Assembly (NCBI GenBank): GCA_013626165.1
Contig: NDHX01000002.1
Coordinates: forward strand, 64,639-128,638
From: Candidatus Velesiimonas alkalicola
Lineage (GTDB): Bacteria; Omnitrophota; Gorgyraeia; Velesiimonadales; Velesiimonadaceae
Length of the DNA: 64,000 nucleotides
Reading direction: 5' to 3'
Shown in pieces: positions 5,279-46,320 of the stretch (within the stretch, counting starts at the first letter, position 1; each line of letters starts with the position of its first letter). Below the pieces are notes generated by a model. The model did no database searches. It saw only the letters and a program-made list of their open reading frames with translations, and was not told where the DNA came from. A program made the position numbers and the translations under genes.

Positions 5279-6095
5279 TCAGAAGTTTCAATATAACCTC
5301 TGCGGCCTTTTTCCCTGAAAGAAGCATGCCTCCGAATGTCGGCCCCATTCTGGGAAGACCGTAGGCTGTTGAAACTGCCATACCGCTTACAACAAGGCCG
5401 GGGTGAATCTCTCCAGTGTGTTCAACAATAAGATCTTCTGACATTTCAACCCACATTGCGCCATATCCTTTTGTTTTTATTATTTCTCTTTCTTCAAGTT
5501 TTTTTATAACAACTGCATCGTGTCCGCTTGCATCAAGAACCACTTTTGACTCAAGGCCAACAGGGTCTACACAGGTAATCTGTCTTGGCAAGGCCTGAAC
5601 AGGTGTCCAGTTTATAACTGCACCACACACCCTGTTATCCTGCCTGACAACCACATCTTCAAACACAGTCATATTTGCAAACTTTACACCCGCATCACAA
5701 GCTGCCGCAATTAATTTTGAACATGCATAAGGACCATCTGCAACAAAAAGCCCTTTAATTACTTCTTTGTGAGGGATTTTAAGTTCTTTAAGAACCTTCT
5801 GGGCTGGCGCTCTTACTGTAAGTTTGTTCATAAGATACCCACCTATCCAAAAGCCACCTCCTAAATAATTGTTTCTTTCTACAATAAAAACCTTTTTCTT
5901 TTTTGCGGCAAGTTCTTTTCCAGCCATAAGCCCGCTTGGGCCCGCTCCAACAATCAGGCAATCGCTTTCTATGTGCTCCTTAAACTCATCTGCAAATTCC
6001 CCAACAATTGCTCTTGTGATTTCTTTTTCACCAACCGCACTAAATAAAGCCTTTTTCACCATAACCCTCCTTTCTATAAATTTGCACCACAACAT
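5262..6095 (-). CDS. thi4: Thi4-family thiazole synthase (sulfide-dependent type)
   Basis: FAD/NAD dinucleotide-binding motif [14 protein letters not shown]; blocks [21 protein letters not shown] and SGHD typical of the Thi4 family. Confidence 0.7.
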
Positions 6096-9000
6096 TTCTT
6101 ATATTTTTTCCCGCTTCCGCAAGGGCAGGGGTCGTTCCTGCCAACCTTGGGTGTTTGTCTTTTATATTGAGAAGAACCTGCAAGGGTGATGGGAATATTC
6201 TCCGTAAGTGCTGTTCTGGTGGATTTACCAACAGCAGGGGCAAATTCTTTTTCTTTTCCAAAATGCAATGTTTGCGGATGCAAAAATTGTCTTATAAGAC
6301 TTACAGGCATTTTTTCAGATACCATAAATGATTTAAATACCCTGACTATTATTTCTAATTTCATCTGCTTTAAAAGTTCTGAAAACATAGAATGCGCCTC
6401 GTGCTTGTATTCTATAAGCGGGTCTCTCTGTCCATATGCCCTTAAACTTACTCCTTCTCTGAGTCCATCCATTGCATAAAGATGCTCTTTCCACTTCATA
6501 TCAATAACTGTAAGCATGGACATCTTCTCTATAAAACGCATGCTATCAGAACCTATGAGTTTTTCTTTTTCATCATAAGCAGAATGCGCGATATTAACAA
6601 TATGTTCAAATATGCCTTCCCTGTCTTTTTCTTTTAAGTCCTCAGATTTAAGACTTACGGGAAAATGGGCTCTTATTCTTTGCACAAGTTCTTCAATATT
6701 TTCTATTTCTTTTTCATCAGGTAAATATTCAAAAATTATTTCTTCTATTGCCTCATCTATCATATTGAGTATGTGGAGTTTTAAATTATTTTCTTCAAGT
6801 GCAATCCTTCTTTCTTCATATATAACTTCTCTTTGACGATTCATCACATTGTCATATTCAAGAAGTCTTTTTCTTATTTCAAAGTTCTGTGTTTCTACTC
6901 TTTTCTGTGCAATTCCGATCGAACGTGTAACTATACCGTGTGCAATCTGTTGTCCATCTTCCACACCCATACGGCTCATAAGACCTGATATCCTGTCAGA
7001 GCCAAAAAGTCTCATAAGGTCATCTTCCAAAGAAAGATAAAATCTTGAAGAGCCCGGATCTCCCTGTCTTCCAGAACGTCCTCTTAACTGTCTATCTATC
7101 CTTCTTGCTTCATGTCTTTCGGTTCCAACAATTGCAAGACCTAAATTATAATCCATAACTGCCTCTTGTTTTTTATTAACGCCTCTGCCAAACCTTGCAA
7201 CCATTGGTTTTTTGTTAGTATTAAAATTTACACTTATTCCATCTGGTTCTAAACTTTTAATAGCCTTTTTGAATACTCCCGTTTCAATGTCTGTCCAGAC
7301 ATTTACAGATATGTTTGTATTGTTTAAAGACTTTTTAACCTGTTCTATGACAGCACAAGAAACAGTCTCTGAAAGACGGGAATCTAACCTTATATCTGTT
7401 CCTCTTCCTGCCATATTTGTCGCTATCGTAACAGAACCAATCTGACCTGCCTTTGCAATAATATGTGCTTCTTGTTGATGATATTTTGCATTAAGAACAT
7501 TATGAGAAATACCGCGCCTTCTTAACATCCTGCTTAATGTTTCAGAGACCTCAACTGATACAGTTCCCACAAGAACAGGTCTTTTTATATTGTAAAGATA
7601 TGCAATCTCATCTATTGCCGCATTGTACTTTTCCCTTTTTGTTTTGTAAATTACATCATCATAATCCTTTCTTACCATCGGCTTGTGTGTGGGTATGACA
7701 ACAACATCAAGTTTATATATTTCCCAGAACTCCTGTGCCTCTGTTTCGGCGGTTCCTGTCATACCGGCAAGTTTTTTATACATTCTAAAATAATTCTGCA
7801 ATGTAATCGTTGCAAGTGTCTGTGTTTCTCTTTCAATTGTAACAGATTCCTTTGCTTCAAGTGCCTCATGAAGCCCGTCACTGTATCTTCTTCCCGGCAT
7901 AAGACGGCCTGTGAACTCATCAACTATTATAACCTTACCATCCTGTATCACATATTCAACATCTTTCTCAAAAAGTGTATATGCCTTTAACAATTGTGAG
8001 ATATTATGTATTCTTTCTCCTTTTACAAGAGATTCCTGTTCAAGGCTTGTTCTTTTCTGGATTTTTTGTTCAGGGGTTAAAGATTTTTCAGACTCAAGTA
8101 TAGCAATCTCTTCATGTATATCTGAAAGCACAAACATATTTGGATCGTTGGGAGAAATCTCTCTTCTTCCTTGTTCAGAAAGATCCGCACTGTGCCCTTT
8201 TTCATCTATTGCGAAAAACAGGTCCTCATCCAGGGTATGAAGTTTCTTATCTCTTATAAAATCAAGTTCTACCTTTCCCATTAAATCTATATTTTTTTTA
8301 TCCTGCAACAACTTCATAAGTTTTTTATTTTTGGGAGCACCTCTTTTTGCCTGAAGCAGTTTTATACCTGCCTCGTAATTTTTCTCCGATGATAATAATT
8401 CCTCTGCCTGTGCAATTATATTGTTCACCAGAAGAGTTTGTTTTTTTACAATTCTTTCAACAGGGCCCTTTAGTTCATGGTACTTATGCGTTGAAACCTC
8501 AACAGGACCTGAAATAATAAGAGGTGTTCTCGCCTCATCAATAAGAACAGAGTCCACCTCATCAACTATTGCAAAAATATGTCCCCTCTGGACCCTGTCC
8601 TCTATCCTGGTTGCCATATTATCTCTTAAATAATCAAAACCAAATTCATTGTTTGTTCCATATGTAATATCACAATCATATTGAACCTTTCTTTGTGATG
8701 GCTCCATCTGGTTTTGTATACACCCAACAGTCAGCCCAAGAAACTCAAATATAGGTCCCATCCATTCTCTGTCACGCATTGCTAAATAATCGTTTACTGT
8801 TATAAGATGCGCACCCTTTCCAGTAAGAGCATTTAAGTACAAAGGCATAATAGCAGCAAGCGTTTTACCCTCACCTGTTGCCATTTCTGCAATTTTTCCC
8901 TCATTAAGTACTATTGCACCAATAATCTGGACATCAAAAGGAATCATATCCCACTTTGTTCCTATACCGCAAACATCCCATTCCCTTCCAACCATTCTTT

Positions 9001-9226
9001 TGCAGGCTTCTTTTACAACAACATATACCTCACACAGGATATCATCAAGGGTCTGACCTTGCTTTAGTCTGCTCTTAAACTCATCAGTTTTTGCCCTTAA
9101 ATGTTCATCTGAAAGATTTTTAATGCTATCTTCAAAAGACTTAACATTCTCTAATTTCTGATAAAGTCGTTTTAATTCTCTTGCATTTTTACTTGCAAAA
9201 ACCTTATGCATCAACCACTGCATCAT
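6074..9226 (-). CDS. secA: preprotein translocase ATPase SecA
   Basis: 1050 aa; DEAD-like motor motifs ([32 protein letters not shown]); C-terminal zinc-binding tail [14 protein letters not shown]. Confidence 0.95.
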
Positions 9227-13496: not shown

Positions 13497-14000
13497 TTAG
13501 CGGCGTCTAAACCACCTTTTTATTCTTAACATTATGTCAGTTAATGTTCCGATTGGGCAAAATATCAAACACCAGAATCTATGGCTAAAAAATGAGAGTA
13601 CAAATATCAAACCGATAAGAAACCAAAAAATATAGCCACCAATAATAAATGAGAAGTATTCTCTGGTTGCCAATATAAATAAAAATACTAAACCAAAAAT
13701 GAAAAATCTGACCCAGTGGCCCCAGGAAGGTAGAATAAACTTTTTTATCTTTATCCCCCGTTGCAAATCCTGAATTGTCCCGCAAGGACACAAAGAAGAA
13801 CAATAAAACCTCCTTTTAAGATTCAATCCCAGCATCCCTAAAAGCAAGAACCACCTTAATCTTCCCCAGGGACATTTTAAATAGCAAATAGAACAGTATA
13901 GGTAAGGCAGACGGAAAGGACAAAATACGAAAGGATAAAAAAGAAGCGGCCCTAAAACTACTAACAAAATTATCTTCACAATTTTTATTTTGCTTATCAC
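13497..14000 (-). CDS. integral membrane 4Fe-4S-binding protein (NapH/Fer4_5-like CxxxCPxG repeats)
   Basis: Three CxxxCP(x)G motifs (CPWG, CPCGTIQD, CPIGTLTD) embedded in hydrophobic segments; 4-nt overlap with the amrS stop. Confidence 0.5.
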   Translation of the reverse strand: MISKIKIVKIILLVVLGPLLFYPFVFCPFRLPYLYCSICYLKCPWGRLRWFLLLGMLGLNLKRRFYCSSLCPCGTIQDLQRGIKIKKFILPSWGHWVRFFIFGLVFLFILATREYFSFIIGGYIFWFLIGLIFVLSFFSHRFWCLIFCPIGTLTDIMLRIKRWFRRR

Positions 14001-14003
14001 AAG

Positions 14004-15002
14004 TTACCTATTCCAGATGCCAGCAATTTTATATCCGCACAATCCGCACCCTCCATCTCTTATATTATTACTCAGAACTGTAAAATGAATCCGATGAATT
14101 AGTCTCTTTTGACATTGAGGGCAATAAGTACTATTACCTTTATGGCCAGGGAGATTACCGATATAGACATATTTTAGTCCTACGCTTTGAGCAATTTTTC
14201 TTGCCGCCTCCAAAGTCCTAACTGGTGTGGCTGGCAGATGCATTAGTCTATAAGCCGGGGAAAAGCGATTAAAATGTAAAGGGACATCCTCTCCTAAATT
14301 GTCTCTAATCCAGATACACATCTGTTCTATCTTATCCAGATCATCGTTCAGGGTTGGAATAATTAAATGGACAATCTCTAAATGCACACCCTCCTGCTTG
14401 ATAATTTTTAAGGTTTCCAATACAGGTTTCAATTGAGCCTGTAAAATTTCTTGATAAAATTTTTCATCAAAACCCTTAAGATCCACTGTAACCCCGTCCA
14501 TATATTTAAGGACTTGCCGCAAAGGTTCAGGAGATATTGAGCCATTAGTATGAAAAAGGTTCAAAAGTCCTTTCTTTTTAGCCAACCTTGCAACATCAAG
14601 CATATACTCGTAAAAAATTGTTGGTTCATTTATGCTGTGGGAGATAGACTTGCACCCCTTTCTTATTGCTTCCTCTACAACCTCTTCGGGAGAATAATTT
14701 TTGCTTCCTAGTTCTTCAGGACCCCGGGTGGTAATATGCCAGTTGTGGCAGTATTTGCAGCGGAAATTGCAAGAAGCGGTAAAAACACAGAGATTCTTGT
14801 GTCCGGGAAGCATATGATACATCGGCTCAAGTTCAATAGGGTCAATCTGAAGTCCCACGGGCCTGCCATAAACTAAACTGTACAATTTCCCTCCTTGATT
14901 TTCCCTTACCCGACAGAATCCACGCCCGCCTTCAGTAATAATACACTTCCGGAAACAAAGTCTACATTGGACCTTGTTATTATCTAATTTTTGATAAAAC
15001 AT
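14004..15002 (-). CDS. amrS: AmmeMemoRadiSam-system radical SAM enzyme (AmrS)
   Basis: CNFRCKYCHNW radical SAM motif; N-terminal CRLC..C Cys motif; strong resemblance to the AmrS family. The ORF track extends to 15161 (GTG start, no SD). The in-frame ATG at 15002 is preceded by AGGAGG and matches the family N-terminus (MFYQKLDNNKVQCRLC), so 15002 is taken as the start. Confidence 0.75.
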   Translation of the reverse strand: MFYQKLDNNKVQCRLCFRKCIITEGGRGFCRVRENQGGKLYSLVYGRPVGLQIDPIELEPMYHMLPGHKNLCVFTASCNFRCKYCHNWHITTRGPEELGSKNYSPEEVVEEAIRKGCKSISHSINEPTIFYEYMLDVARLAKKKGLLNLFHTNGSISPEPLRQVLKYMDGVTVDLKGFDEKFYQEILQAQLKPVLETLKIIKQEGVHLEIVHLIIPTLNDDLDKIEQMCIWIRDNLGEDVPLHFNRFSPAYRLMHLPATPVRTLEAARKIAQSVGLKYVYIGNLPGHKGNSTYCPQCQKRLIHRIHFTVLSNNIRDGGCGLCGYKIAGIWNR

Positions 15003-15144
15003 CGCCTCCTTCCCGCCTGCCAGCCTGTCCGCCGAAGCCTCTACGTAGGCGGGAGCAAAGCGGCGAACAAGCAGGCCCACCCCATTTATTTTTAAAGTGG
15101 CAGATATTAAACAAAACAAAAATATTATTAACCCTATTCTTCTC

Positions 15145-15243
15145 ATATTTAATACAAACACATTAAATTGCTTTACATAAAATAATCTCCCCTAACCCCT
15201 CTTTCGGGCACTCTCTGGATTAGGGGGAACAACGAAAGGGATG
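15145..15243 (-). repeat. dispersed GC-stem repeat element, copy C (~95 nt; second copy at 49003-49095)
   Basis: The reverse complement aligns at ~75% identity over ~95 nt with 49003-49095. Shared cores are GTGCCCGAAAGA(G/A)(G/A)GGTTAGGGG and TTTTATGTAAAG(C/T)AATTTAA..TTTGTATTAA. Confidence 0.55.
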
Positions 15244-15421: not shown

Positions 15422-15793
15422 TTAATACACATTTAAATCTTTTAAACGTTTATCAGATATTCCGAAATGATGGGCGATCTCATGCTGTATAACATGTTTT
15501 ATCTCCTTGTAAATATCTAATCCTTTTTTCTCACATTCCAGCTCAATATTTTGTTTATAAAGTATAATCTTATCGGGCATCACCATGCCATAATAATGAG
15601 TCCTGTCTTTCAAGGGAACACCGTAATAAAGTCCCAAGAGTCGACTTTGTGTGCCCGGCCTGAGTTTTTTTACCATGTCCACATTAAGATCTTCCTCAAT
15701 GGTGATATCTACATTTTGAAGTTTATCCTTGAATTTTTTCGGAAGCCCCTTCAAAACATCTGCAACCAATGATTCAAATTCCTTGCGAGTCAT
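15422..15793 (-). CDS. zincin-like metallopeptidase family protein (small HExxH protein, DUF1025-like)
   Basis: 123 aa; C-terminal HEIAHHFG zinc-binding motif. Confidence 0.6.
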   Translation of the reverse strand: MTRKEFESLVADVLKGLPKKFKDKLQNVDITIEEDLNVDMVKKLRPGTQSRLLGLYYGVPLKDRTHYYGMVMPDKIILYKQNIELECEKKGLDIYKEIKHVIQHEIAHHFGISDKRLKDLNVY

Positions 15794-16031
15794 ATCTTCG
15801 AGACCATTTATTATTGGCCCTCTATTCTAAAGTAATCATATAAACGGGCTCACTACTTATTAGTTATATGGACGGGTCAGGGAGTAGTTTCCCAACTTGT
15901 CATCCGTTGAGAAGCGAAGCGACAAAGGATCTCATGAGATCCTTCAGCCCCTCGTGCTTTAGGATAAGCCCTTCGGGAAAGAATAGAAAAACCCCGACTG
16001 CTTATTTATTTGACAGAGTATTATAATAATC

Positions 16032-17492
16032 TTATTCTCCAAAGACCTGAGTTGAATAGATGTAGAACTCCATATCTTTATCACGCCAGGCTCCTGGGGC
16101 AAGTCCGGCCTTGCGGCAGAGTTGTTCTAAAGTCTCTTTTCTATCCCATCCCTGCTCAAGGGGCACATGGGGGAGAAATGTTGCTCCCCGTCGGCCCTTT
16201 CGCATAATAATTCCATGCTTTCCAACTTCATATTGACTAACATTGTCTATCTTTACTAAGGGAGAAAGATACACCGAAAGTTCTATTTTAATATCTTCAA
16301 TCTCTTCTGGCCTCAATTTAGGAAATCGCCTGTCAAAAAAAGCAGCATCTATAGCAGTTTTTGCAACCTGTTTGTAAAGTGGCAGTTCCGATTCGTGTAC
16401 ACCGATACAACCCCGCAATTTTCCGTCTTTGTAAATAGTGACGAATATGCCCCGTCTTTCATTTAACACCGTATAATTTCCTGGTTCAATTTTTGGTGTT
16501 GCAGATGTTACTGCATACCCCTGAATGGCCTGACGGGCAAGTTTAAGAAGTATCTTTTGTGCCTCTTTACTTAAAGGTTCATAAGTCTCTATCCCTTGAG
16601 AGCCGGCCAAACTAGTTATGGCCATTGCCGCATAGCCCACTACCCGGGACTTGTCTCCAAAGGGCACATCCCCGGAGTTAGCATATTTTAACAGTTTGAC
16701 TTTGTTCGCACCCAACTTTTCGGCTACTAACATAGTAACTACTGTTGCTGCGCCACCACAGAGCTCATATTCATTTCTTTGCAAACCTTTAAAGAGCAGA
16801 TCACCATCTAATTTTTCCATCGCCGAAATTGTTTTTTTATCAATCTCTACTGCCTCCTGATAGGGATGGAAATGGGAAAGGTCAGTAGAAGCGATAAAGA
16901 GCACATTCCTGTCCTTGGTGTGTTTAAGAAGCGCATCGGCCAAAATTTTACAGGTCTGAAGGTTGCGCTCACCCATTATTATGGGCACAATTTTAAAATC
17001 TCCAAGCACTGTTTGTAAAAATGGTAGTTGTACCTCCAGGGAATGCTCCTTTTTATGCGCCTGAGGATGAAAACCTATTTTTTCATTTTCTTTAATTAGT
17101 TTTTTCACTAATGTTCTATCTACTGACACATCCCCTAAGGGAGTGCGATAGGCAGAGTAGTTTCCGATGGAAGCACCGGGAAACTTCATCCTATGGCTAT
17201 CCCCGATTAAAATAATGGTATCAAAATCTCTTCCTTCTAACTGTTTATAAGAATGTGCCGCCACCTGGCCTGAGAAGACAAAACCAGCGTGGGGAACAAC
17301 TAATGCAACCAACTCTCCGTCTAACTCTACCGGCTGGACTTGTTCTAAAAACCCTTTAACCATCCTCCTTAACTCTGGGACAGAAGCAGGATAAAAACTG
17401 CCTGCTACTGCTGGTTGCCGAACCTCTTCTGCTACTGCCCATTTAACCATACTAAAAACCAAAAGAGTAATTATAAGTATCCTTTCATTCAT
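16032..17492 (-). CDS. MEMO1-family (AmmeMemoSam B) + AMMECR1 fusion protein with N-terminal Sec signal peptide
   Basis: Signal peptide MNERILIITLLVFSMVKWAVA|EE with GGGGGAG SD before ATG; Memo motifs AGSFYP and VVPHAGFVFSG; C-terminal AMMECR1 domain (RGIFVTIYKDGKLRGCIG, HGIIM.KG.RGATFLP). Confidence 0.8.
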   Translation of the reverse strand: MNERILIITLLVFSMVKWAVAEEVRQPAVAGSFYPASVPELRRMVKGFLEQVQPVELDGELVALVVPHAGFVFSGQVAAHSYKQLEGRDFDTIILIGDSHRMKFPGASIGNYSAYRTPLGDVSVDRTLVKKLIKENEKIGFHPQAHKKEHSLEVQLPFLQTVLGDFKIVPIIMGERNLQTCKILADALLKHTKDRNVLFIASTDLSHFHPYQEAVEIDKKTISAMEKLDGDLLFKGLQRNEYELCGGAATVVTMLVAEKLGANKVKLLKYANSGDVPFGDKSRVVGYAAMAITSLAGSQGIETYEPLSKEAQKILLKLARQAIQGYAVTSATPKIEPGNYTVLNERRGIFVTIYKDGKLRGCIGVHESELPLYKQVAKTAIDAAFFDRRFPKLRPEEIEDIKIELSVYLSPLVKIDNVSQYEVGKHGIIMRKGRRGATFLPHVPLEQGWDRKETLEQLCRKAGLAPGAWRDKDMEFYIYSTQVFGE

Positions 17493-17506
17493 AATCTTGC
17501 TCCCCC

Positions 17507-17948
17507 CTAATATCTTCCCACTGGCATTATGTAAAGAGGCACTTCATCCTTTGCCCCGAGAATTTTCTTAACTGCTTCGTCATGGAAGGCACCGATTATC
17601 ACTGTGCCTAAACCCAATGCCTCTGCCTGCAGGTGAACATTTTGACCCGCACCTCCCACATCCATAGGGACATAGCGAACCTCGCCTCTTTTGCCATATC
17701 TTCTTGTAGTGCAAAAAATAGACCACAGTAAAGACTAAACTTACAGGAGCATTTGCTACCATCCTCTGCTCCAGAGCTGCCAACATTAACTGCTTGCAAA
17801 AATCATCTTCTTTTACGGAAACAATAATATGCTCTTGCCAGTTATAATGATAAATACCAGAGGGCAGATAGGTCTCTAACGGGTAAACCCGTTTGTTGCT
17901 TGGTAAACTATTGAGGGATTGAAATATCAAGTAAGCGAACCTCACCAA
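17507..17948 (-). pseudogene. SagB-type dehydrogenase / nitroreductase-fold gene remnant (N-terminally truncated and frameshifted)
   Basis: 5' part reads ...RVYPLETYLPSGIYHYNWQEH...APVSLVFTVVYF (ORF 17580..17948). The continuation YGKRGEVRYVPMDVGGAGQNVHLQAEALGLGTVIIGAFHDE...PVGRY* lies in another frame ending at TAG 17507-17509. The frame switch maps to an A6 run (17713-17718). The FMN-binding N-terminal ~80 aa (RRSxR block) is missing. Confidence 0.55.
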
Positions 17949-19362
17949 GGCTTGAAAGAGGCTTATCGAAAAACTCAGGGTTACCCACTACAAGTATGGT
18001 CAGTTTGTCCGGTTTTAGATGAGCCCGGGCAACCCTTAAAATATCATTTTTTGTTACCTCTTTTATACCCTCAATGAGCCTCTTTATATAATCAAGGGGA
18101 TACCCATAGTATTCATAACGCATAAGCCTTTCAATTATTTCATCTTTTGTATCAAACCAGAAGACAGCTGCATTTAAAATACTTTCTTTGCCGACTTTAA
18201 GTTCTTCATAACTTACTTCTTTCTGCCGTATTAGTTCAATCTCTCTTTTCATCAGAGTTATTGCCTCAATAGTGCGACCTAAAGAAGTCTGGGCAGTAGC
18301 AATAAACAACCCTGGATAATCAAACTCAGCCGTTTGCCATGCCCAAACCTCATAAGCGAGCCCCTCTTCTGTCCGCAGACGACGGCCAAATCTTGAATGC
18401 CAGCCTGCTCCTAATATTTTACTCAACACTATGGAAGCAAAATAATCAGGATGATCACGCCTTATACCTAAATGGCCCATTCTTATCGCAGACTGGGTGG
18501 CCTCTTTTCGGATAACTAAATTAAATGAGGCAATGGGCTCCTGCTCAATTATGGGCTTCTCAGGAAATTGAATCTCTCTTGGTTCCCAATCTCCGAATAT
18601 ACTTTCTACCTTTTTAAGCATCTCTTCGCTCTCAAAATCTCCCCACAAACCCAGAACAATATTGTTAGGATGAAAAAAATTATTATAAAATAACACTAAA
18701 TCATTCCTGGTAATCTTCTCTATTGTTTTATACTCTACAATCCTCGCATAGGGATTATCTCTCCCATAAATAAGCCTTCTAAATTCTCTGTTGGCAAGCT
18801 CCTCTATATTGTCATTTCTGCGGGCAATTAATCCCCTTATTTTAATTTTGGCAAGTTCTATTTTAGCCTGGTCAAAGAGAGGGTTCCTTAAAATATCACC
18901 GAATACAGAGAAGATTTCATTGAAATTATCTTTAAGAGAAAAACCACAAACCCAACCCATATCTCTATCAGCGCCTGCCTCTATCTGAGCTCCTACCCTC
19001 TCAAGTTTCATATCTATCTCGTTTCCTGTCCTCTGTCCACCCCCTCCTGTTCTGATAACTTCAAATGTTATATCACAAAGTCCAGCCTTATCCTGGGGAT
19101 CCCAAATAGAGCCCGTCTTTATAAGAGCCTTGAAATGGATAAGGGGTAATGTTCTGTCCTCCATAAGATAAACAATCATTCCGTTTTTAAGCTCTCTTCT
19201 TGTATATTCCGGAACTTCAATAGGCTCTAATTCAACAAACTCCAATCTCTGAAAATCCCTTGTCGTATCTCTTTTTGGAAAGCAGCCTATCAGAAAAACA
19301 GGGACTAACAAAAAAATAATTCCTTTTTTAATCTTTTTAAGTTCTCTCTTCATCTTACTCAC
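17908..19362 (-). CDS. M16-family peptidase-like lipoprotein (probable non-catalytic partner subunit)
   Basis: Lipobox LIGC after N-terminal signal; M16 fold blocks; no HxxEH motif seen; 4-nt overlap with upstream M16 gene. Confidence 0.7.
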   Translation of the reverse strand: MSKMKRELKKIKKGIIFLLVPVFLIGCFPKRDTTRDFQRLEFVELEPIEVPEYTRRELKNGMIVYLMEDRTLPLIHFKALIKTGSIWDPQDKAGLCDITFEVIRTGGGGQRTGNEIDMKLERVGAQIEAGADRDMGWVCGFSLKDNFNEIFSVFGDILRNPLFDQAKIELAKIKIRGLIARRNDNIEELANREFRRLIYGRDNPYARIVEYKTIEKITRNDLVLFYNNFFHPNNIVLGLWGDFESEEMLKKVESIFGDWEPREIQFPEKPIIEQEPIASFNLVIRKEATQSAIRMGHLGIRRDHPDYFASIVLSKILGAGWHSRFGRRLRTEEGLAYEVWAWQTAEFDYPGLFIATAQTSLGRTIEAITLMKREIELIRQKEVSYEELKVGKESILNAAVFWFDTKDEIIERLMRYEYYGYPLDYIKRLIEGIKEVTKNDILRVARAHLKPDKLTILVVGNPEFFDKPLSSLGEVRLLDISIPQ

Positions 19363-20912
19363 AGTTTAGGCTCAACCATTCCCACAACTCTATTCTGTGA
19401 AAAAAAGTAGTTATTTACTACCCTCTTTATATCTTCTTCGCTCACTTTCTCAACCTTTTCTAATTCTTTAAACATATTCCTCCAGTCGCCTGTCACCGCT
19501 TCATACCAGGCAAGCTCCCTGGCTATCCCTCTTCTGGACTTAAGCCCTCTGATGAACTCGGTCCTCACCCTGGCCTTCGCTCCTTCTAATTCTGTGACAT
19601 TTACAAGTTCCTTCTTTAATCTCTCAATCTCCTCGTAAATTAACCTTTCCACTTCTTGGTTTGTATGGCCCTTTGATGCCATTCCCCACAAATAAAACAT
19701 CCCGGGATATTTTGGAGCCCAGGACCAAGAACCCACATCTATGGCAACCTTTTCTTTTTTTACGAGACGCTCATATAACCGAGAGGTTCTTCCCCCACCC
19801 AAGATCTCTGCAACTATCCTCAGCATTGGTCGGTCGGGATGAGTAGCCTTAAATGTATGATAGCCTATTATTAAAATTGGTTCTGCCTTTATTTCCACGG
19901 TAACTTTTCTTTCAGAAGCCTGAACCGGTTCAACTGTTATTACTGAAGGTGGTCTGTCTTTAACCGGAAATCTTCCAAAGTACTTCTCCATCTTGGGGAT
20001 AAGTCTTTCTGGCTCTACATCGCCCACAATGGCCACTATTATATTACAAGGGGTATAGTGTTTTTCATAAAAACTCCTTATCTTATCTCGTGTCATATTT
20101 TCAAGATCGCTCATGTGCCCAATTATAGGATTCCCGTAGGGATGTGCTTTATAAGCAATTGCCCTGAATTCCTCCCAGAGCCTTCCCCACGGTGAGTTGT
20201 CAACGAGCATCCTTCTCTCTTCTTTGACAACTTTCAATTCTTGATAAAACCCACGCGCTACTGAATTCAGTAACCGGTCAGACTCCAAGAGCGCCCACAA
20301 CTGGACCTTATTAGAAGGAAGCTCAACCCAGTAACAGGTAAAATCATAACTGATATAGGCACCAGGGCCAATTGCTCCAGCTCGCTCGAGAATCTGACCA
20401 AACTCATTAGTTCTGGTAAACCTATCTGCAGCAAGTCTAGCTTCTTCAAACTCTTCCTCAAGCCTCTGTGTATTTTCTCCTTCTGCTTTAGCCATTAACA
20501 ATTTTTTGTGAATACGGTCAAGTTTGGCCAAAGCCTTTTTCTCATCTTTCCAATTTTTGGTTCCAATAACCTGGGTTCCATTAAAGGCTAAATGCTCCAG
20601 TAGATGGGCTATCCCTGTCTCCCCTACTCTTTCATTTACCGCGCCAACATCCACATGCACTTGAAAGGAAACAACCGGAGCAGAATGGTCGGACAGAATT
20701 ATAAGTCGTATGCCATTTTTGAGCGTATGCTCGGTAACCCTTTCCTGGTAATCTTTATAAGCCAAGCAATGGTCTGCAAGAGCTATAAATATTATGAAAA
20801 CTACACAGATAAACCCTGTTAGAAATCTTTCGGCCTTAGCCATAACTTGTTTATTATAAGCAACAGGTTTCAATAATAATCCCATCATCTTCTCAGCCAC
20901 CAGAATCCCCAC
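19359..20912 (-). CDS. M16-family zinc peptidase (HxxEH, pitrilysin-like), exported
   Basis: HLLEHLAFNGT inverted zinc-binding motif; hydrophobic N-terminal segment; 517 aa. Confidence 0.8.
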   Translation of the reverse strand: MGILVAEKMMGLLLKPVAYNKQVMAKAERFLTGFICVVFIIFIALADHCLAYKDYQERVTEHTLKNGIRLIILSDHSAPVVSFQVHVDVGAVNERVGETGIAHLLEHLAFNGTQVIGTKNWKDEKKALAKLDRIHKKLLMAKAEGENTQRLEEEFEEARLAADRFTRTNEFGQILERAGAIGPGAYISYDFTCYWVELPSNKVQLWALLESDRLLNSVARGFYQELKVVKEERRMLVDNSPWGRLWEEFRAIAYKAHPYGNPIIGHMSDLENMTRDKIRSFYEKHYTPCNIIVAIVGDVEPERLIPKMEKYFGRFPVKDRPPSVITVEPVQASERKVTVEIKAEPILIIGYHTFKATHPDRPMLRIVAEILGGGRTSRLYERLVKKEKVAIDVGSWSWAPKYPGMFYLWGMASKGHTNQEVERLIYEEIERLKKELVNVTELEGAKARVRTEFIRGLKSRRGIARELAWYEAVTGDWRNMFKELEKVEKVSEEDIKRVVNNYFFSQNRVVGMVEPKL

Positions 20913-22018
20913 CCAGTATCAAGATTTGTAAGCCCCAGTTCTTTTGCACGGTCAACAACTTTTTTATATTCCTCATCGGTTATCCTCCTGGATATTTGCG
21001 GATAATCAAATGCTTTATATCTCGGGTTATACTGCGCCATAATATTGATATATGTGTCTTTTGGCAGATTTTCCGCTATCCACTCCATAATCTTTTCTGA
21101 ACCAGCAACATTATTTGGCATAACCAGATGGCGAATCATCAGCCCCCTGTACACAAGACCATCTTTTTCTGGTTTTGCCACACCGACCTGGCGGTGCATC
21201 TCAAGGATTGCTTCTTTTGTCACCTCCGGATAACTCTTTGCTCCGGCTGAATATTTTGCTGACATTTCACTATCCCAGTATTTGAAATCAGGCAGGTAAA
21301 TATCAACAATACCATCAAGAATCTTGATTATCTCAAGCGGTTCCCAGCCAGAAGTGTTGTATATAATTGGCAGCCGAAGTCCCCTGCTTGCGGCTATATC
21401 AAGTGCTTTAAGAATATGCGCAGAGTAATGTGTTGGGGTTACAAGATTTATATTATGAGCGCCCCTTTTTTGCAGTTGAAGCATCATATCAGCCAATTCC
21501 TCAATACTTTTTGCAAAGCCCCTGCCAAGATGACTTATTTCATAGTTCTGGCAAAATACACATCTTAAATTGCAATGGGTAAAAAAGATCGTCCCTGAAC
21601 CACCTCTGCCAACAAGTGGCCTTTCCTCGCCAAAATGCGCATGAAAGGATGAAACAAAAAGCCTTGTACCCGGGGCACGACAGAATCCGGTCCCACCCCT
21701 GAGACGATTGATGCCACATCTTCTCGGACAGAGTGAACATTTTTCCATCATTGCCCACAATTTTTCCGCCCGTTTTTTTAATTCACCTGATCTGTGAAGT
21801 TTTAAGTAAACAGGTTCAAAATCAGTGTCTATAGCAGCAAATTTTTTAACCACATTCCCCCCATCTTTCCCTTGGAAAGTTTGCCTGCCAAGGGCTTCTT
21901 GGCTGCCCATCTCCCTGTATCCGATATACAACGCTACAAAAACAACAACAATAAGCCCTAATACCATCTTTAAAAACAATTTATCTTTCATATTAAATCT
22001 CCCGAGTCGTTTATTCAT
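20885..22018 (-). CDS. PflX-like radical SAM protein (COG1313, PFL-activase homologue)
   Basis: CSLCPRRCGINR..GFC N-terminal Cys motif followed by CNLRCVFCQNYEISH radical SAM motif; N-terminal hydrophobic stretch may be spurious or an anchor. Confidence 0.7.
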   Translation of the reverse strand: MNKRLGRFNMKDKLFLKMVLGLIVVVFVALYIGYREMGSQEALGRQTFQGKDGGNVVKKFAAIDTDFEPVYLKLHRSGELKKRAEKLWAMMEKCSLCPRRCGINRLRGGTGFCRAPGTRLFVSSFHAHFGEERPLVGRGGSGTIFFTHCNLRCVFCQNYEISHLGRGFAKSIEELADMMLQLQKRGAHNINLVTPTHYSAHILKALDIAASRGLRLPIIYNTSGWEPLEIIKILDGIVDIYLPDFKYWDSEMSAKYSAGAKSYPEVTKEAILEMHRQVGVAKPEKDGLVYRGLMIRHLVMPNNVAGSEKIMEWIAENLPKDTYINIMAQYNPRYKAFDYPQISRRITDEEYKKVVDRAKELGLTNLDTGWGFWWLRR

Positions 22019-22509: not shown

Positions 22510-23673
22510 TTAACAATATTCCATTGTAACCCGTTTCCCCTTCTCTCTTAATAATGATGCAATAGATTCAACAATCTTTCGTTTAATGACTAATTCAGAT
22601 GGCATATTGGGGTTTTGATGGGCAGGATTTATTGTCTGCCCAACAACGAAGTTGATGCTGTCTGCAGAAAGCAAGACCTTTGCCAGCCGTGAAGCACCAT
22701 CTCTCCTGTCCACCAGCTCATCACTAACAACCCCTCCCTTAATCTGTTCTAATGCACCAGAGAGAGTTAAAATGCCTTCAGTAACGAGATCTATCCCTTT
22801 AAGGATACCAGTAGGCGGTATCCCATTGCACATTGAGGATATATCTACGATTAGCTCCTCTTTCAATATTCTGGCAACGATATTGGTTGTAGAACCACCA
22901 CACACCACTTTTATACCATCAAAATTAACCAGTTCATTAACCACATTTTCATCATCTTTTACATCAAGCGGTGGACCGATCATCGCGATGAGTCGCTGGA
23001 ATAGACGAGAATTAATCACTACACAAGTGGCGTCATCCCCGGGCATCTCCTCATAAAAACTATTTGCTGTATCAAGAAGTGACCTGGTTAAGGAAGAAGC
23101 TGATGGTAAAGACCCTGCTTTCTCCTCTAAAAACTTCCCTACTCTCTCCCTTTGCCACCCCATACTCCATACCTTTCCCAGGCCAGCATGAACAATACCA
23201 TCACTTACTATTACCAGATAATCATTCCTATCCATAGGAAAATAAGATTCTGATATTTTTATCCCTCCTACTGGATACTCATTTCCTGAAATAGTGTTAA
23301 GTCTACCCTGATGGATAAAAAAAGGCTCTGGATTGCCATATTCAAACGCAACTACCTCTCCCCTGGAAGATATCCGTAGGATGGTAAATGTTGAATAAGC
23401 CAATTTTCGCACCTGACAGACGGGTAGGGTTTCAGCAAGGGTTTCTACCACTTCCTTCAAGTTAACCCCTTTTTCTAACATAGTTGCAATAATCCTGGTA
23501 GTCAGCGTTGCCAGAATTGATGCCTTGATGCCGCTACCCAATCCATCAGACATAACCACAATTGTTGAACCATCATCTACTCTTTTTACCATTACATTAT
23601 CGCCACAGACCTCTTCATTGTGTTTGGTTAGAGAACCATGAGATACCTCCACAAAAATCTCCCGGGGGTTCAT
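22510..23673 (-). CDS. PP2C/SpoIIE-type protein phosphatase (hydrogenase-associated)
   Basis: N-terminal PP2C-like block VCGDNVMV...VVMSDGLGSGIKAS; 4-nt overlap with hydS. Confidence 0.65.
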   Translation of the reverse strand: MNPREIFVEVSHGSLTKHNEEVCGDNVMVKRVDDGSTIVVMSDGLGSGIKASILATLTTRIIATMLEKGVNLKEVVETLAETLPVCQVRKLAYSTFTILRISSRGEVVAFEYGNPEPFFIHQGRLNTISGNEYPVGGIKISESYFPMDRNDYLVIVSDGIVHAGLGKVWSMGWQRERVGKFLEEKAGSLPSASSLTRSLLDTANSFYEEMPGDDATCVVINSRLFQRLIAMIGPPLDVKDDENVVNELVNFDGIKVVCGGSTTNIVARILKEELIVDISSMCNGIPPTGILKGIDLVTEGILTLSGALEQIKGGVVSDELVDRRDGASRLAKVLLSADSINFVVGQTINPAHQNPNMPSELVIKRKIVESIASLLREKGKRVTMEYC

Positions 23674-25361
23674 TTTCCCTCCATCAACTTTAACAGTTCA
23701 AGAAGAGATGCCTTGGTCTCAGCCGTGGTTTCCCCCAGGAGACCAGCGATCTCCTGAGCAACCCGCATCTGCTTGTTAATAACAGTATGAGCCCTGGAAA
23801 AACTTTCCTTGCGCCTCTCTTCTTCTTTAATATGTCTTTGCTGCTTGGTAATATCAATAAAAATACCTACGGCTATATTATGCTTAGGCACAAAGAGTAT
23901 CGTCTGTTGAAATATAAGCTCATACCCTGGATAGGAAACCTCACCGGAGATAACATTCTGCTCAGAGAAGGCTTTCCTGAAATAATTGTCATCAATTATC
24001 GTATTGAGTTTATTTCCAATCAACTTTCTCTTTTGACAGGAAAAGAGTTCTCTGGCTGCCGCGTTTATATCAAGGATGGTCATATCTTCTGCTACGACAA
24101 TCACTCCACTGGGTATTGATTCAGTAATTATCTCGCTCATAGACTCTGCTTTTGTCCGCATATAGGGGATACACATCTCTATCTCAGCCATACCCTGATA
24201 TACTGCAACCGCCTTTTCACGACAGGAATCATATCCGCAAGCACCACAGTTGGTTTCATCCTCAGGGGTAAATTTACCAATACTGGAAAGCAGTCCTCCA
24301 ATATCCTCATCCGTAGGAATGAGAGGAGTTATTCTGCGGTCAGCGTAGCTCCTGCTCAAATCTACTTCCTTAAACTTCTTGATCGGTATAGAGATACCCT
24401 CATTATCTTTTGAAAAACCGAGTATCTTCTGTCTGCGAGCAAGAAGAGAATATTCGGTTTTTATCCCGGGCCCATTGATACAACCCTCTGGACAGGCAAG
24501 CATCTCAATGATATTTACCTTTTGCGGAATATTCTTGCCAAAATCTTTTAGAAATTCTTTGCACTCCTCTACCCCTGAGATAACAAGCACCTCTCGCGAT
24601 AACATATCAGGATTTATGGAAGCTGTTTTTAATAGTCCTCCTTCCAGGGGAAAAAGTCTTGCCCATTTGGGACTTTCATTGGCAAATTCTTCCTCTGCCA
24701 AAGACCCAATATTGATATGTTCTTCTTCAAACCATTCTTTTAATTCCACAAAGGTTAGAACCCCATCAATTGCTCCGGGCACATCAACCATCTCTTTCTT
24801 TTTGGCGATACAGGGTCCAATAAATACAACTCGCATATCTTCGGTATGATCTGCCTTAAGCATTCTTCCATGGGCAATCATTGGTGAGACAACCCTGGCA
24901 AGATGAGGAATCAGTTCAGGATAATATATCTCTACCAGACCGACAATTGCCGGGCAAGAGCTTGTTAGAACAGGTTTTGGAAGAGTCTCAAGCATCTTAA
25001 TATGTTCTGTGGCAACCATCTCTGCTGCCCAGGCAGTCTCCTCTACCTCGGCAAAACCTAATTTATGCAGTGCAGAAACCATCTGCCCGGGATGCTTGAG
25101 ATCAAACAGTCCGGCAAAAGACGGGGCAAGACTGACTATGACTTTGAACTTAGAGGCAAGAAGTTCCTTTATCCTATTCAGACCATCCTCTATCTCCTTG
25201 GCATTATGGGGACAAACTGCCACACATTTGCCATCAAGGATGCACCGTTCTTCAACCACCTCGGCATGCTGTTTTTTAATTCTAATTGCCTTCAATGGAC
25301 AGCTTCTCACACACTTATAGCAATTCTCACAGTCTACTTTTTTTATGTTAATTATATTCAT
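23670..25361 (-). CDS. hydS: sensory [FeFe]-hydrogenase-like protein with C-terminal PAS domain (HydS type)
   Basis: Two N-terminal 4Fe-4S ferredoxin motifs; H-cluster motifs TSSCPA (variant L1), GPCIAKKKE (L2), EMLACPEGCINGPG (L3); extra Cys cluster CGACGYDSC; PAS-like GVIVVAEDMTILDINAAARELF. Confidence 0.75.
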   Translation of the reverse strand: MNIINIKKVDCENCYKCVRSCPLKAIRIKKQHAEVVEERCILDGKCVAVCPHNAKEIEDGLNRIKELLASKFKVIVSLAPSFAGLFDLKHPGQMVSALHKLGFAEVEETAWAAEMVATEHIKMLETLPKPVLTSSCPAIVGLVEIYYPELIPHLARVVSPMIAHGRMLKADHTEDMRVVFIGPCIAKKKEMVDVPGAIDGVLTFVELKEWFEEEHINIGSLAEEEFANESPKWARLFPLEGGLLKTASINPDMLSREVLVISGVEECKEFLKDFGKNIPQKVNIIEMLACPEGCINGPGIKTEYSLLARRQKILGFSKDNEGISIPIKKFKEVDLSRSYADRRITPLIPTDEDIGGLLSSIGKFTPEDETNCGACGYDSCREKAVAVYQGMAEIEMCIPYMRTKAESMSEIITESIPSGVIVVAEDMTILDINAAARELFSCQKRKLIGNKLNTIIDDNYFRKAFSEQNVISGEVSYPGYELIFQQTILFVPKHNIAVGIFIDITKQQRHIKEEERRKESFSRAHTVINKQMRVAQEIAGLLGETTAETKASLLELLKLMEGK

Positions 25362-25362
25362 A

Positions 25363-25617
25363 TTATTCCAATCTCCTCAAAACCTTATCCCTAAAGATCT
25401 GCTCACAGTTTTCTCTGGTTACCTCAGTAATAATCTCTTCCTCAATCATTACTGCAACCCCAGAAGAACAATTTTTCAGACAGAAAGCACCTTTTAGCTG
25501 GACTCTATCTTCCAAAGAAGATTCTTTTATCAGGAGAGAATATTTATCTGCAATTTCACCGCCACCCTTAAGATAGCACGAACTCCCTACACAGATATGC
25601 ACCGTGACCATTTTCAT
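25363..25617 (-). CDS. small thioredoxin-like [2Fe-2S] ferredoxin (NuoE/HydC-like)
   Basis: 84 aa; Cys spacing CVGSSCY...CLKNC. Confidence 0.6.
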   Translation of the reverse strand: MKMVTVHICVGSSCYLKGGGEIADKYSLLIKESSLEDRVQLKGAFCLKNCSSGVAVMIEEEIITEVTRENCEQIFRDKVLRRLE

Positions 25618-25623
25618 CCCTGT

Positions 25624-27426
25624 CTATGCCTCCAGTTCTATGGCATCAAAAGGACAATCAGAAAGACAGAGACCACATCTGGTACAGAGACTATCATCTA
25701 TTACATGAACTTTCCGAGCCTCTCCTGAAATAGCTCCTGTAGGACACGATTTAAGACAACGGGTGCATCCCTTGCATTTTTCTGCTAAAATATAGTAGTG
25801 TTTTAAGGCTGGGCATCTCCCTACAGGACATCTTTTCTCTTCTACATGAGCGATATACTCATCCCGAAAATACTTTAATGTTGTTAAGACGGGATTGGGC
25901 ACTGATTGTCCCAATCCACAGAGTGAACTGTCCCTGATGACAAGAGCAAGTTCCTCCAGCAGTTCAAGATCATCACGGCTGGCTTCACCTTGAACAATCT
26001 TTTTTAAGATGCGGAACATCTGTTTACTACCCTCTCTACAGGGCAGGCATTTCCCACAGGATTCATTCTTGGTGAATTGCAGAAAATACATGGCTACATC
26101 AACCATGCAATCCTCTTCATTCAGAATCACCATTCCCCCTGACCCCATCATTGCCCCGACATTTTTCAGGGAATCAAAATCAACCGGAAGATGAAGCAGG
26201 TCAAAAGGCAAACAGCCACCAGATGGCCCACCAATCTGAACCGCCTTGAAGTTTTTACCATCAGGAATTCCTCCACCAATATCATAGATAATCTCTCTCA
26301 GGGTTATACCCATTGGCACCTCTATCAATCCGCAGTTTGTAATGTTTCCTGTCAGGGAAAAGACTGCTGTTCCAGGGCTTTCGGTGGTGCCCATTCTTCT
26401 AAACCATTCGCTCCCATTGATGATAATTCGCGGAATGGTGGCAAAGGTCTTCACATTATTGAGTAAGGTAGGTTTTCCCCATAGCCCTTCCTCAGTAGTG
26501 CGGGGACGGGGGAGAGGCTTCGGCATCCCTCTTTTGCCTTCAATAGAGAGAACTAGGGCCGTAGACTCACCGCAAATAAAAGCCCCGGGCCCCTGGAAAA
26601 TCTCTATGTCAAAATCGAATCCGCTCCCTAAAACATTTTTGCCGAGGAATCCCTTCTCTCTTGCCTGAGCAGTAGCAATCTTTAACCGTTTCACGGCTAA
26701 GGGATACTCGGCTCTAACATAGATGTATCCCTTTTTAGCGCCTACGGCATAACCGGCAATAGCCATTCCTTCAATCACTGATTGTGGATCTCCCTCTAAA
26801 ACTGAGCGATCCATAAATGCCCCGGGATCACCTTCATCGGCATTACAGATCACATATTTAATCTCATCCTGAACTTTCTGACATGACTCCCATTTTCTTC
26901 CTGTAGGAAACCCACCGCCACCACGCCCTCTGAGTCCAGAGCAATTCACCATATCAATAACTTTTAGTGGTGTAAGAGAAGATAAGGCTTTTTTCAGACC
27001 ATTGTAACCATCTTTACTCAAATAGTCATCTATCTGTTCTGGATTTATCTGTCCACAATTTGAGAGGACAACACGTCGCTGATGTTTATAGAAGGGAATA
27101 TCTTGATAACGGGGTATATGTTTCTGGGTTTGGGAACAGAGATAGCACAATCGTTCCACTATTATCCCCTTCTTTATGTGCGAATCCACAATTTCGGGGA
27201 CATCTTCGGTCTTAACTCTTCCGTAAAAGGTGTCCCCAGGTCTTATTATCACAACCGGGCCGAGCTGACACAGTCCATGACAGCCGGTGAAATCAACGGT
27301 TACCCTGTCGAGATTCAGGACCGATAGCTCTCTCTCAAAGGCCTCCTTGATAATGTGGGAGCCCATTGCTTCGCAACTGGTCCCCTGACAAATATGGATT
27401 GTTTTTTCCATCAGGTTTTTCCGCAA
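25624..27426 (-). CDS. hydB: [FeFe]-hydrogenase NADH-binding subunit HydB (NuoF-like with N-terminal NuoE-like domain)
   Basis: GRGGGGFPTGRKW FMN/NADH motif; N-terminal CQGTSCE..C 2Fe-2S; C-terminal two 4Fe-4S motifs (CKGCTRCLKSCP, CTRCGLCLSDCP); 600 aa. Confidence 0.85.
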   Translation of the reverse strand: MRKNLMEKTIHICQGTSCEAMGSHIIKEAFERELSVLNLDRVTVDFTGCHGLCQLGPVVIIRPGDTFYGRVKTEDVPEIVDSHIKKGIIVERLCYLCSQTQKHIPRYQDIPFYKHQRRVVLSNCGQINPEQIDDYLSKDGYNGLKKALSSLTPLKVIDMVNCSGLRGRGGGGFPTGRKWESCQKVQDEIKYVICNADEGDPGAFMDRSVLEGDPQSVIEGMAIAGYAVGAKKGYIYVRAEYPLAVKRLKIATAQAREKGFLGKNVLGSGFDFDIEIFQGPGAFICGESTALVLSIEGKRGMPKPLPRPRTTEEGLWGKPTLLNNVKTFATIPRIIINGSEWFRRMGTTESPGTAVFSLTGNITNCGLIEVPMGITLREIIYDIGGGIPDGKNFKAVQIGGPSGGCLPFDLLHLPVDFDSLKNVGAMMGSGGMVILNEEDCMVDVAMYFLQFTKNESCGKCLPCREGSKQMFRILKKIVQGEASRDDLELLEELALVIRDSSLCGLGQSVPNPVLTTLKYFRDEYIAHVEEKRCPVGRCPALKHYYILAEKCKGCTRCLKSCPTGAISGEARKVHVIDDSLCTRCGLCLSDCPFDAIELEA

Positions 27427-46288: not shown

Positions 46289-46320
46289 TGCATTTTCCTT
46301 AAAGTTTATTAATGTATCTA

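Follow-up and report, generated by a model that had tools for sequence, protein, structure and literature searches.

Background

Conservation of Memo and AMMECR1 extends from bacteria to humans; both have links to human disease, with no agreed biochemical function for either. In bacteria, the two families meet in the three-gene AmmeMemoRadiSam system, in which protein B (Memo, TIGR04336) and protein A (AMMECR1, TIGR04335) are accompanied by a radical S-adenosylmethionine (SAM) enzyme (TIGR04337), and this system is the best available handle on what Memo and AMMECR1 do. Fusions of B to A (hereafter B–A) also occur in thousands of database proteins. As far as we know, the system is treated as cytoplasmic, and we know of no precedent for an exported radical-SAM enzyme. 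In the literature that we covered, which included few papers from subscription journals, no account was found of export of the AmmeMemoRadiSam system or of any exported radical-SAM enzyme.

Here, we describe a B–A fusion encoded in a 64,000-nucleotide stretch of Candidatus Velesiimonas alkalicola, phylum Omnitrophota (assembly GCA_013626165.1, contig NDHX01000002.1, positions 64,639 to 128,638); this whole stretch is referred to as the window, and all coordinates are positions within it. All three members of the system are present in the window and score far above the curated cutoffs of their families. The locus differs from the described system by a predicted signal peptide of the general secretory (Sec) type on the B–A fusion and by an N-terminal leader on the radical-SAM enzyme. 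We consider it probable (about 0.75), from the comparative sequence evidence set out below, that the fusion is exported by Sec, cleaved after Ala21 and works extracytoplasmically with its leader-bearing radical-SAM partner.

A predicted signal peptide on the Memo–AMMECR1 fusion

The open reading frame (ORF) of the fusion (16032..17492, minus strand; stop codon 16032-16034) encodes 486 amino acids, and its product has the same sequence as GenBank MBA2123588.1 (“hypothetical protein [bacterium Unc6]”); by its profile matches, the protein is an AmmeMemoRadiSam B–A fusion. Hydropathy, a structural model and orthologue conservation together delimit a predicted signal peptide, MNERILIITLLVFSMVKWAVA, at residues 1-21 (17430..17492, minus strand). 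The N-terminus as read is MNERILIITLLVFSMVKWAVAEEVRQPAVAGSFYP, and past the predicted cut the sequence is EEVRQPAVAGSFYP. Its layout is tripartite, with n-region MNER (17481-17492), h-region ILIITLLVFSMV (I5-V16, 12 residues; 17445-17480) and c-region KWAVA (K17-A21; 17430-17444), all on the minus strand, followed by EE. The small residues of the c-region stand at -3 and -1 of an A-V-A motif, and signal peptidase I (SPase I) is predicted to cut between A21 and E22. The initial annotation of this ORF had proposed an AxA-type Sec signal peptide ending in AVA, and in that it is supported by the leaders of orthologues (59 of 81 loci, 17 of them with lipoboxes), the model and the radical-SAM leaders described below. 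Two of its details need correction. The h-region, given as 17 residues, has 12, because Lys17 interrupts the hydrophobic run and splits off the c-region; and the n-region, described as positively charged, holds one Arg and one Glu, for a net side-chain charge of 0. The n-regions of close homologues (MNKR, MSKT, MINK) are net positive. Two other signal types were considered for the window leader and rejected: a lipobox for signal peptidase II, with zero Cys in residues 1-24, and a twin-arginine translocation (Tat) signal of the S/T-R-R-x-F-L-K type, with no RR.

The peak of N-terminal hydropathy, taken as the maximum over 10 residues, was computed for 53 window proteins and is bimodal, all recognised cytoplasmic enzymes lying at or below 2.0. 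At 3.04, the fusion is among the 12 proteins with a peak of at least 2.6, a group that takes in the recognisable envelope proteins, namely an S41 protease, a polysaccharide deacetylase, an M16 lipoprotein and RNase Y. A segment as hydrophobic as this could instead stay uncleaved as a signal anchor (N-in, C-out), which would leave both domains facing the periplasm, tethered to the cytoplasmic membrane beside the NapH-like and SpeE-like partners introduced below. Such an anchor would fit the lipoproteins that make up many of the orthologues and are likewise membrane-tethered, the polytopic membrane proteins among the conserved partners and the mere three residues between the predicted cut and the first conserved residue of the fold. 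However, the 12-residue h-region is short for a bilayer-spanning helix, the A-x-A is canonical and lies at the right distance after it, and orthologous leaders end in AxA-type sites of their own (AFA|EE, VWA|AD, VSA|DP); we regard an uncleaved anchor as unlikely, and cleavage after Ala21 as the better account.

The position of the leader relative to the fold was examined by profile, alignment and model. The Memo domain spans residues 25-293 (16614..17420, minus strand): PF01875 (4e-69, 233 bits) begins at residue 26, and TIGR04336 (294.9 bits against a curated cutoff of 26) begins at residue 25 and is covered from position 1 to 270 of its 270 positions. Residues 4-5 of human MEMO1 align with residue 25, so that the first 24 residues appear as an addition to the fold, and the Memo domain follows the cleavage site directly, just as first proposed. 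An AlphaFold2 model built from a 30-sequence alignment (mean predicted local distance difference test score, pLDDT, 92.9) places residues 3-15 in a detached helix and residues 1-20 outside the fold (pLDDT 51-60), with a confident globular part (pLDDT >=90) from about residue 21 onward. Foldseek searches with the two halves of the model retrieved MEMO1 (E 1e-23; TM-score 0.80, target-normalised) and the archaeal AMMECR1 homologue PH0010 (1vaj; E 9e-21).

The AMMECR1 domain, residues 314-486 (16035..16553, minus strand), matches PF01871 (2e-50, 171 bits) and TIGR04335 (166.8 bits against a curated cutoff of 99). In the 30-sequence alignment, the equivalents of the MEMO1 metal site, H68, H100, D204, H207 and C245, are invariant; in the alignment to PDB structures, they fall in the PHAGY, GPSHH, SSDFCHW and TICG motifs of MEMO1, whose own metal-site residues we take to be H49, H81, D189/H192 and C244. 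Equally invariant are G361, C362 and G364 of the R-G-C-I-G motif in the AMMECR1 domain. Because the His/His/Asp-His/Cys site of Memo and the RGCIG motif of AMMECR1 are both intact, both domains are presumably active.

A Shine-Dalgarno-like motif, GGGGGGAG, lies at 17500..17507 (minus strand), upstream of the ATG. The initial annotation had recognised this motif and placed it 8 nucleotides (nt) from the start codon; the motif stands, with a spacer of 7 nt (CAAGATT). The first G of the motif also ends the TAG stop codon of an upstream nitroreductase remnant. Upstream of the internal Met15, where the sequence is TTTTTAGT, no Shine-Dalgarno motif was found.

The leader among homologues and related loci

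A genomic scan with one genome per species gave 80 loci, from Omnitrophota, Acidobacteriota, Desulfobacterota, Zixibacteria, WOR-3, Latescibacterota, Bacteroidota/Ignavibacteria and one Altiarchaeota metagenome-assembled genome (MAG), which together with the window make 81 (numbers with L denote loci, those with P database homologues). Because gene callers often choose internal Met codons, the leader was sought on the DNA, in the stop-to-stop reading frames around each profile match. An in-frame start codon and a hydrophobic leader precede the Memo domain in 59 of the 81 loci, drawn from Omnitrophota, Acidobacteriota, Desulfobacterota, WOR-3, Latescibacterota, Bacteroidota and the Altiarchaeota MAG; the 22 without a leader include L049, which looks like a leader minus its start codon. 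The leader is conserved across many phyla, a point that the initial annotation had left for orthologues to decide, and orthologues show no uniform start, whether at the internal Met or directly with the Memo domain. In 17 of the 59 leader-bearing loci, the leader carries a lipobox (L-x-[GAS]-C) followed by a linker rich in Ser, Thr, Asn and Glu. Conversion to a lipobox makes no sense unless the protein is exported, and these 17 loci therefore argue for export.

The 120 best homologues in the database are B–A fusions almost without exception and give a similar picture, with a leader in 91 of the 116 full-length entries (19 with a lipobox). Among the closest homologues, the leader is 11-75% identical to that of the window protein, compared to 59-82% for the Memo domain; it has indels and retains its hydrophobicity, and in one homologue of 71% identity (P0010) it has switched to a lipobox. 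To judge from these alignments, the leader evolves fast yet stays hydrophobic, which is the usual behaviour of a signal peptide.

The same data bear on the choice of start codon. Were translation to begin at Met15 or near the Memo domain, the product would be an ordinary cytosolic Memo–AMMECR1 protein, and some database entries would seem to say so: those of near-identical proteins sometimes start later (480 amino acids, MVTLLVF...), and 16 of the 116 full-length homologue entries begin at the domain. Against this stand the strong Shine-Dalgarno motif before Met1, with none before Met15, and the upstream frame itself, which is a conserved hydrophobic leader in 59 of the 81 loci, with conservation at the amino-acid level and conversions to lipoboxes. 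Moreover, some seemingly leaderless B–A entries are internal-Met calls of leader-bearing genes, as with P0053 and P0113, which pair with the longer P0054. A late start is highly improbable on these comparisons, by which the leader is no artefact of start-codon choice and is a feature beyond chance. Public gene calls for both the fusion and the radical-SAM enzyme are often shortened at an internal Met at the domain boundary (P0047, P0053, P0113, P0204 and others), hiding leaders.

A neighbour-joining tree of 77 full-length mature domains has a root inferred to be leader-bearing and requires at least 8 changes, most of them losses; leaderless forms are grouped in a few subclades (Zixibacteria/Ignavibacteria and Bacteroidales). 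Five loci, L071 among them, encode Memo and AMMECR1 as separate adjacent genes, neither of which has a leader. The leader is present in 0/5 unfused versus 59/76 fused loci (p = 0.001 by Fisher's test, in which, as in all Fisher tests here, the loci were taken as independent and their phylogenetic non-independence was ignored). Since the unfused genes are leaderless, this distribution suggests that B–A fusion and predicted export are linked.

The radical-SAM partner

One gene downstream of the fusion, on the same strand and in the same co-directional gene string, lies the partner radical-SAM enzyme (14004..15161, minus strand), which matches TIGR04337 with 350.8 bits against a cutoff of 220 and has CNFRCKYC as its CX3CX2C motif. 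It carries a 53-residue N-terminal extension with a very hydrophobic segment (from Met6, MRRIGLIIFLFCLISATL...; hydropathy 3.26), which is, as predicted from sequence, a Sec-like leader or a signal anchor. A Tat signal was considered and rejected: despite an RR at Met6+1, the leader does not match TIGR01409, and its h-region is more hydrophobic than a Tat signal allows.

Leaders are common on the homologues of this enzyme. The 120 best comprise 46 with twin-arginine-type leaders (for example, SSRREFLKRG, ITRRDFIKGLGG and LNRRSFLKKSLL), 45 with Sec-like hydrophobic leaders, 16 with non-hydrophobic extensions, 10 that start at the domain and 3 fragments. When three of the “leaderless” entries were read on the DNA, all had an in-frame upstream leader that the gene caller had missed. 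Six of 10 Tat-type leaders tested passed the curated cutoff of TIGR01409. In the Omnitrophota and the window lineage, the leaders resemble classical Sec signals, such as MKKSLLLLILLLSVLFPAIGA|DQ. Mature enzymes that are about 75% identical can differ in leader type, one Tat-like and the other Sec-like (P0128 versus the window). In L083, L084 and L085, the called radical-SAM start is too late, and a leader lies upstream.

The radical-SAM gene is adjacent to B–A in 39 of the 81 loci, and these are distributed very unevenly, with 38/59 leader-bearing versus 1/22 leaderless B–A loci (p = 6.5e-7). Where a leader-bearing fusion has an evaluable adjacent radical-SAM gene (36 loci), the leader of the enzyme is of the Tat type in 20 and Sec-like in 11; the 5 enzymes without a leader include one case at a contig edge and L075, whose radical-SAM gene lies beside a second, leaderless Memo gene. 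Of the leaderless B–A loci, only L071 has an adjacent radical-SAM gene, and the enzyme that it encodes is leaderless too. With L075 reassigned accordingly, the enzyme bears a leader in 31/35 cases beside a leader-bearing B–A versus 0/2 beside a leaderless Memo (Fisher p = 0.02).

In one subclade of Tat-type enzymes (seven loci), the N-terminal CxxCxxxC is replaced by CxxCH, as in ARYWISANSEGVRCLSCH. CxxCH is the attachment motif of c-type heme, and heme attachment takes place only outside the cytoplasm. The motif in these enzymes could equally be an altered metal site.

The leaders also bear on the topology of the system, which might be tethered the other way round (N-out, C-in) and act from inside on a membrane lipid. 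Supply of SAM and of iron-sulfur (Fe-S) clusters would then be unproblematic and the paradox of radical-SAM chemistry beyond the membrane resolved, and several radical-SAM leaders of the lineage have Arg or Lys on both sides of their hydrophobic segment (...ATLKINGVGLLVRRF in the window, ...FICRRERSFR in L025). Genomic contexts of Memo, AMMECR1 and radical-SAM enzymes have reportedly been tied to the modification of nucleotide bases and of isoprenoids. By contrast, the lipoboxes and canonical Tat signals of orthologous systems are export signals by definition, and the CcdA/DsbD_TM neighbours described below point to a need for reductant outside. Furthermore, a C-out topology is predicted because most leaders have positive N-flanks and acidic C-flanks (here, EE at +1 and +2). 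A cytoplasm-facing tether is accordingly very unlikely in our estimate, and the leaders are more readily taken as export signals.

Neighbouring and accessory genes

When all ORFs of the 80 loci were clustered without bias, one further recurrent family emerged, a polytopic membrane protein of about 750 amino acids with a central spermidine-synthase-like domain (PF01564) that scores below the cutoff for true SpeE. The gene for this SpeE-like protein is adjacent to B–A in 28/59 leader-bearing versus 0/22 leaderless loci (p = 1.4e-5), and it is also found beside the closest relatives of the window genes (L081, L082, L083, L084, L086 and L088). In these loci, a pair of leader-bearing TIGR04337-type paralogues often flanks it; those upstream of it in L083, L084, L086 and L088 have an EAMFY...C.LC...C motif. 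Hydropathy and positive-inside counts for 28 sequences place 4-7 helices before the large loop, with an inconsistent charge bias. CcdA/DsbD_TM genes were found in seven loci and in L081 and L082.

Only 4 nt downstream of the window radical-SAM gene lies a gene for a small polytopic membrane protein of 167 amino acids with CX3CP motifs (13497..14000, minus strand; Fer4_5, NapH/MauN-like; PF12801, 6e-11). The same position is taken by such a gene in the Atribacteria locus L083, and related CX3CP membrane proteins are encoded in L081, L028 and five Acidobacteria loci. We regard the NapH-like protein as a candidate donor of electrons across the membrane.

Directly upstream of B–A is the remnant of a SagB-like nitroreductase gene (17507..17987, minus strand), a pseudogene with a frameshift at about 17711-17718. 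Its last 66 residues are 91% identical to the L081 orthologue; about 93 residues are missing from its N-terminus, and with them the membrane anchor and RRSxRxY motif of that orthologue. In L081 and L082, the nitroreductase is intact, N-terminally anchored and likewise directly upstream of B–A. Further upstream, a second radical-SAM protein of another type (20885..22018, minus strand) has a CSLCPRRC motif at its N-terminus, an N-terminal transmembrane segment and no NCBIfam equivalog; its orthologue in L082 (613 bits), which has an RG-type Tat-like N-terminus, lies beside a SpeE-like gene and a B–A fusion.

Between 11225 and 22018 (minus strand), eight of nine consecutive intact genes encode N-terminal hydrophobic segments, namely those of the deacetylase, the S41 protease, the Fer4_5 protein, the radical-SAM partner, B–A, two M16 peptidases (the first with a LIGC lipobox) and the second radical-SAM protein; the exception is a zincin gene at 15422-15793. 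The M16 peptidases, the S41 protease, the deacetylase and the zincin were considered as members of the system and rejected as incidental, because the 80 related loci show no recurrence of any of them.

A perfect 20-nt palindrome with no Rfam match, AAGGATCTCATGAGATCCTT, stands at 15925-15944, within the 238-nt gap that follows the B–A gene. An Rfam scan of the intergenic gaps for riboswitches or other RNAs returned one tRNA only (38414-38486), and a scan for promoters and terminators did no better than on shuffled sequence. Elsewhere, the window encodes SecA (6074-9226), as well as, jointly at 22510-29930, 33647-34672 and 45032-47478 (all minus strand), a HydABC-type [FeFe] hydrogenase and a PAS-containing hydrogenase-like sensor with a SpoIIE phosphatase, an IS110 transposase and adjacent genes for MetK (SAM synthetase) and S-adenosylhomocysteine hydrolase.

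Proposed mechanism and implications

Export of the pre-protein, the site of its cleavage, the route of electrons and activity outside the cell are what we infer from these observations. In the proposed scheme, residues 1-21 would serve as a Sec-type (SPase I) signal peptide, Sec would export the pre-protein and SPase I would cut after Ala21 (AVA|EE); in many relatives, the protein would be lipidated at the lipobox Cys instead. The mature 465-residue fusion would then reside in the periplasm or extracytoplasmic space and act there with the leader-bearing radical-SAM partner, which would follow by a Tat signal in many lineages and by a Sec-like leader or anchor in the window lineage. Fusion of B to A would economise on targeting, one signal peptide sufficing for both domains. 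Nearby membrane redox proteins could plausibly carry electrons, and conceivably SAM, across the membrane: the NapH-like protein here, and CcdA/DsbD_TM or SpeE-like proteins in relatives.

Several considerations weigh against this scheme. The 22 leaderless loci among the 81 indicate that the family is not obligatorily exported, the window n-region is uncharged on balance and the Fisher tests cited above treat related loci as independent. The 64 kb of the window yielded neither a SpeE-like nor a CcdA gene, and, given this and the nitroreductase pseudogene, the local system may have been rearranged or have decayed in part. With a leader that is Sec-like in the window lineage, the radical-SAM enzyme would require insertion of its Fe-S clusters after export, and we know of no machinery for Fe-S insertion after Sec export. 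To our knowledge, moreover, neither SAM nor a low-potential reductant, both of which radical-SAM chemistry needs, is known in the periplasm.

On balance, the leaders and their distribution suggest that the three-part AmmeMemoRadiSam system works outside the cytoplasm in many bacteria. A bolder version, which we put forward tentatively and hold to be doubtful as it stands, is that a complete radical-SAM and Memo–AMMECR1 system carries out Fe-S/SAM radical chemistry in the periplasm of many phyla, on an envelope substrate, with electrons and possibly SAM delivered through the NapH-like CX3CP, CcdA and SpeE-like partners; alternatively, the radical-SAM enzyme might bring its SAM with it through Tat and serve Memo–AMMECR1 as a single-turnover activase.

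If a large, ancestral clade of the system does lie outside the cytoplasm, candidates for its substrate are confined to envelope and periplasmic molecules, and the recurring partners (SpeE-like proteins, CX3CP membrane Fe-S proteins and CcdA) offer concrete hypotheses. Export of the system would also cast doubt on the working view that radical-SAM enzymes are confined to the cytoplasm, and it would raise the testable question of how SAM, reductant and Fe-S clusters are supplied beyond the inner membrane. The wider pattern, an extracytoplasmic radical-SAM system with a membrane partner specific to leader-bearing loci, would be of greater interest than a single signal peptide, and the evidence for it is that of sequence.

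Comparison with known systems

The Memo half of the window protein shares its fold and metal-site residues with human MEMO1 (PDB 3BCZ, 7KQ8, 7L5C) and yeast Mho1. MEMO1 is cytosolic, stands alone and has 3-4 residues ahead of its fold, whereas the window protein has 24 extra residues at its N-terminus and an AMMECR1 domain at its C-terminus. The AMMECR1 half, in turn, shares its fold and the RGCIG motif with the archaeal homologues PH0010 (1VAJ), MM0484 (1ZQ7) and ST0229 (1WSC), which are stand-alone and leaderless, whereas in the window the domain forms the C-terminal half of a predicted exported fusion.

Pyruvate formate-lyase activating enzyme (PflA; PDB 3C8F, E 4e-11) is the closest solved relative of the window radical-SAM enzyme, and the next-best NCBIfam matches are likewise glycyl-radical activases. 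Unlike the window enzyme, with its additional N-terminal CxxCxxxC and its leader, PflA is cytoplasmic and lacks an N-terminal extension; no glycyl-radical enzyme is evident as a substrate of the window enzyme. As a working analogy only, the combination of a twin-arginine cofactor-bearing redox protein (the radical-SAM enzyme in 20 loci) with a polytopic CX3CP Fe-S membrane protein recalls the Tat-exported Fe-S proteins and their donors, such as NapG/NapH, NosZ/NosR and the hydrogenase small subunits. It differs from these in that the exported protein would be a radical-SAM enzyme and in that the leader in the window lineage is Sec-like rather than Tat. The profiles of its two halves place the window B–A protein fully within the AmmeMemoRadiSam B and A families; its predicted export signal sets it apart from all characterised relatives.

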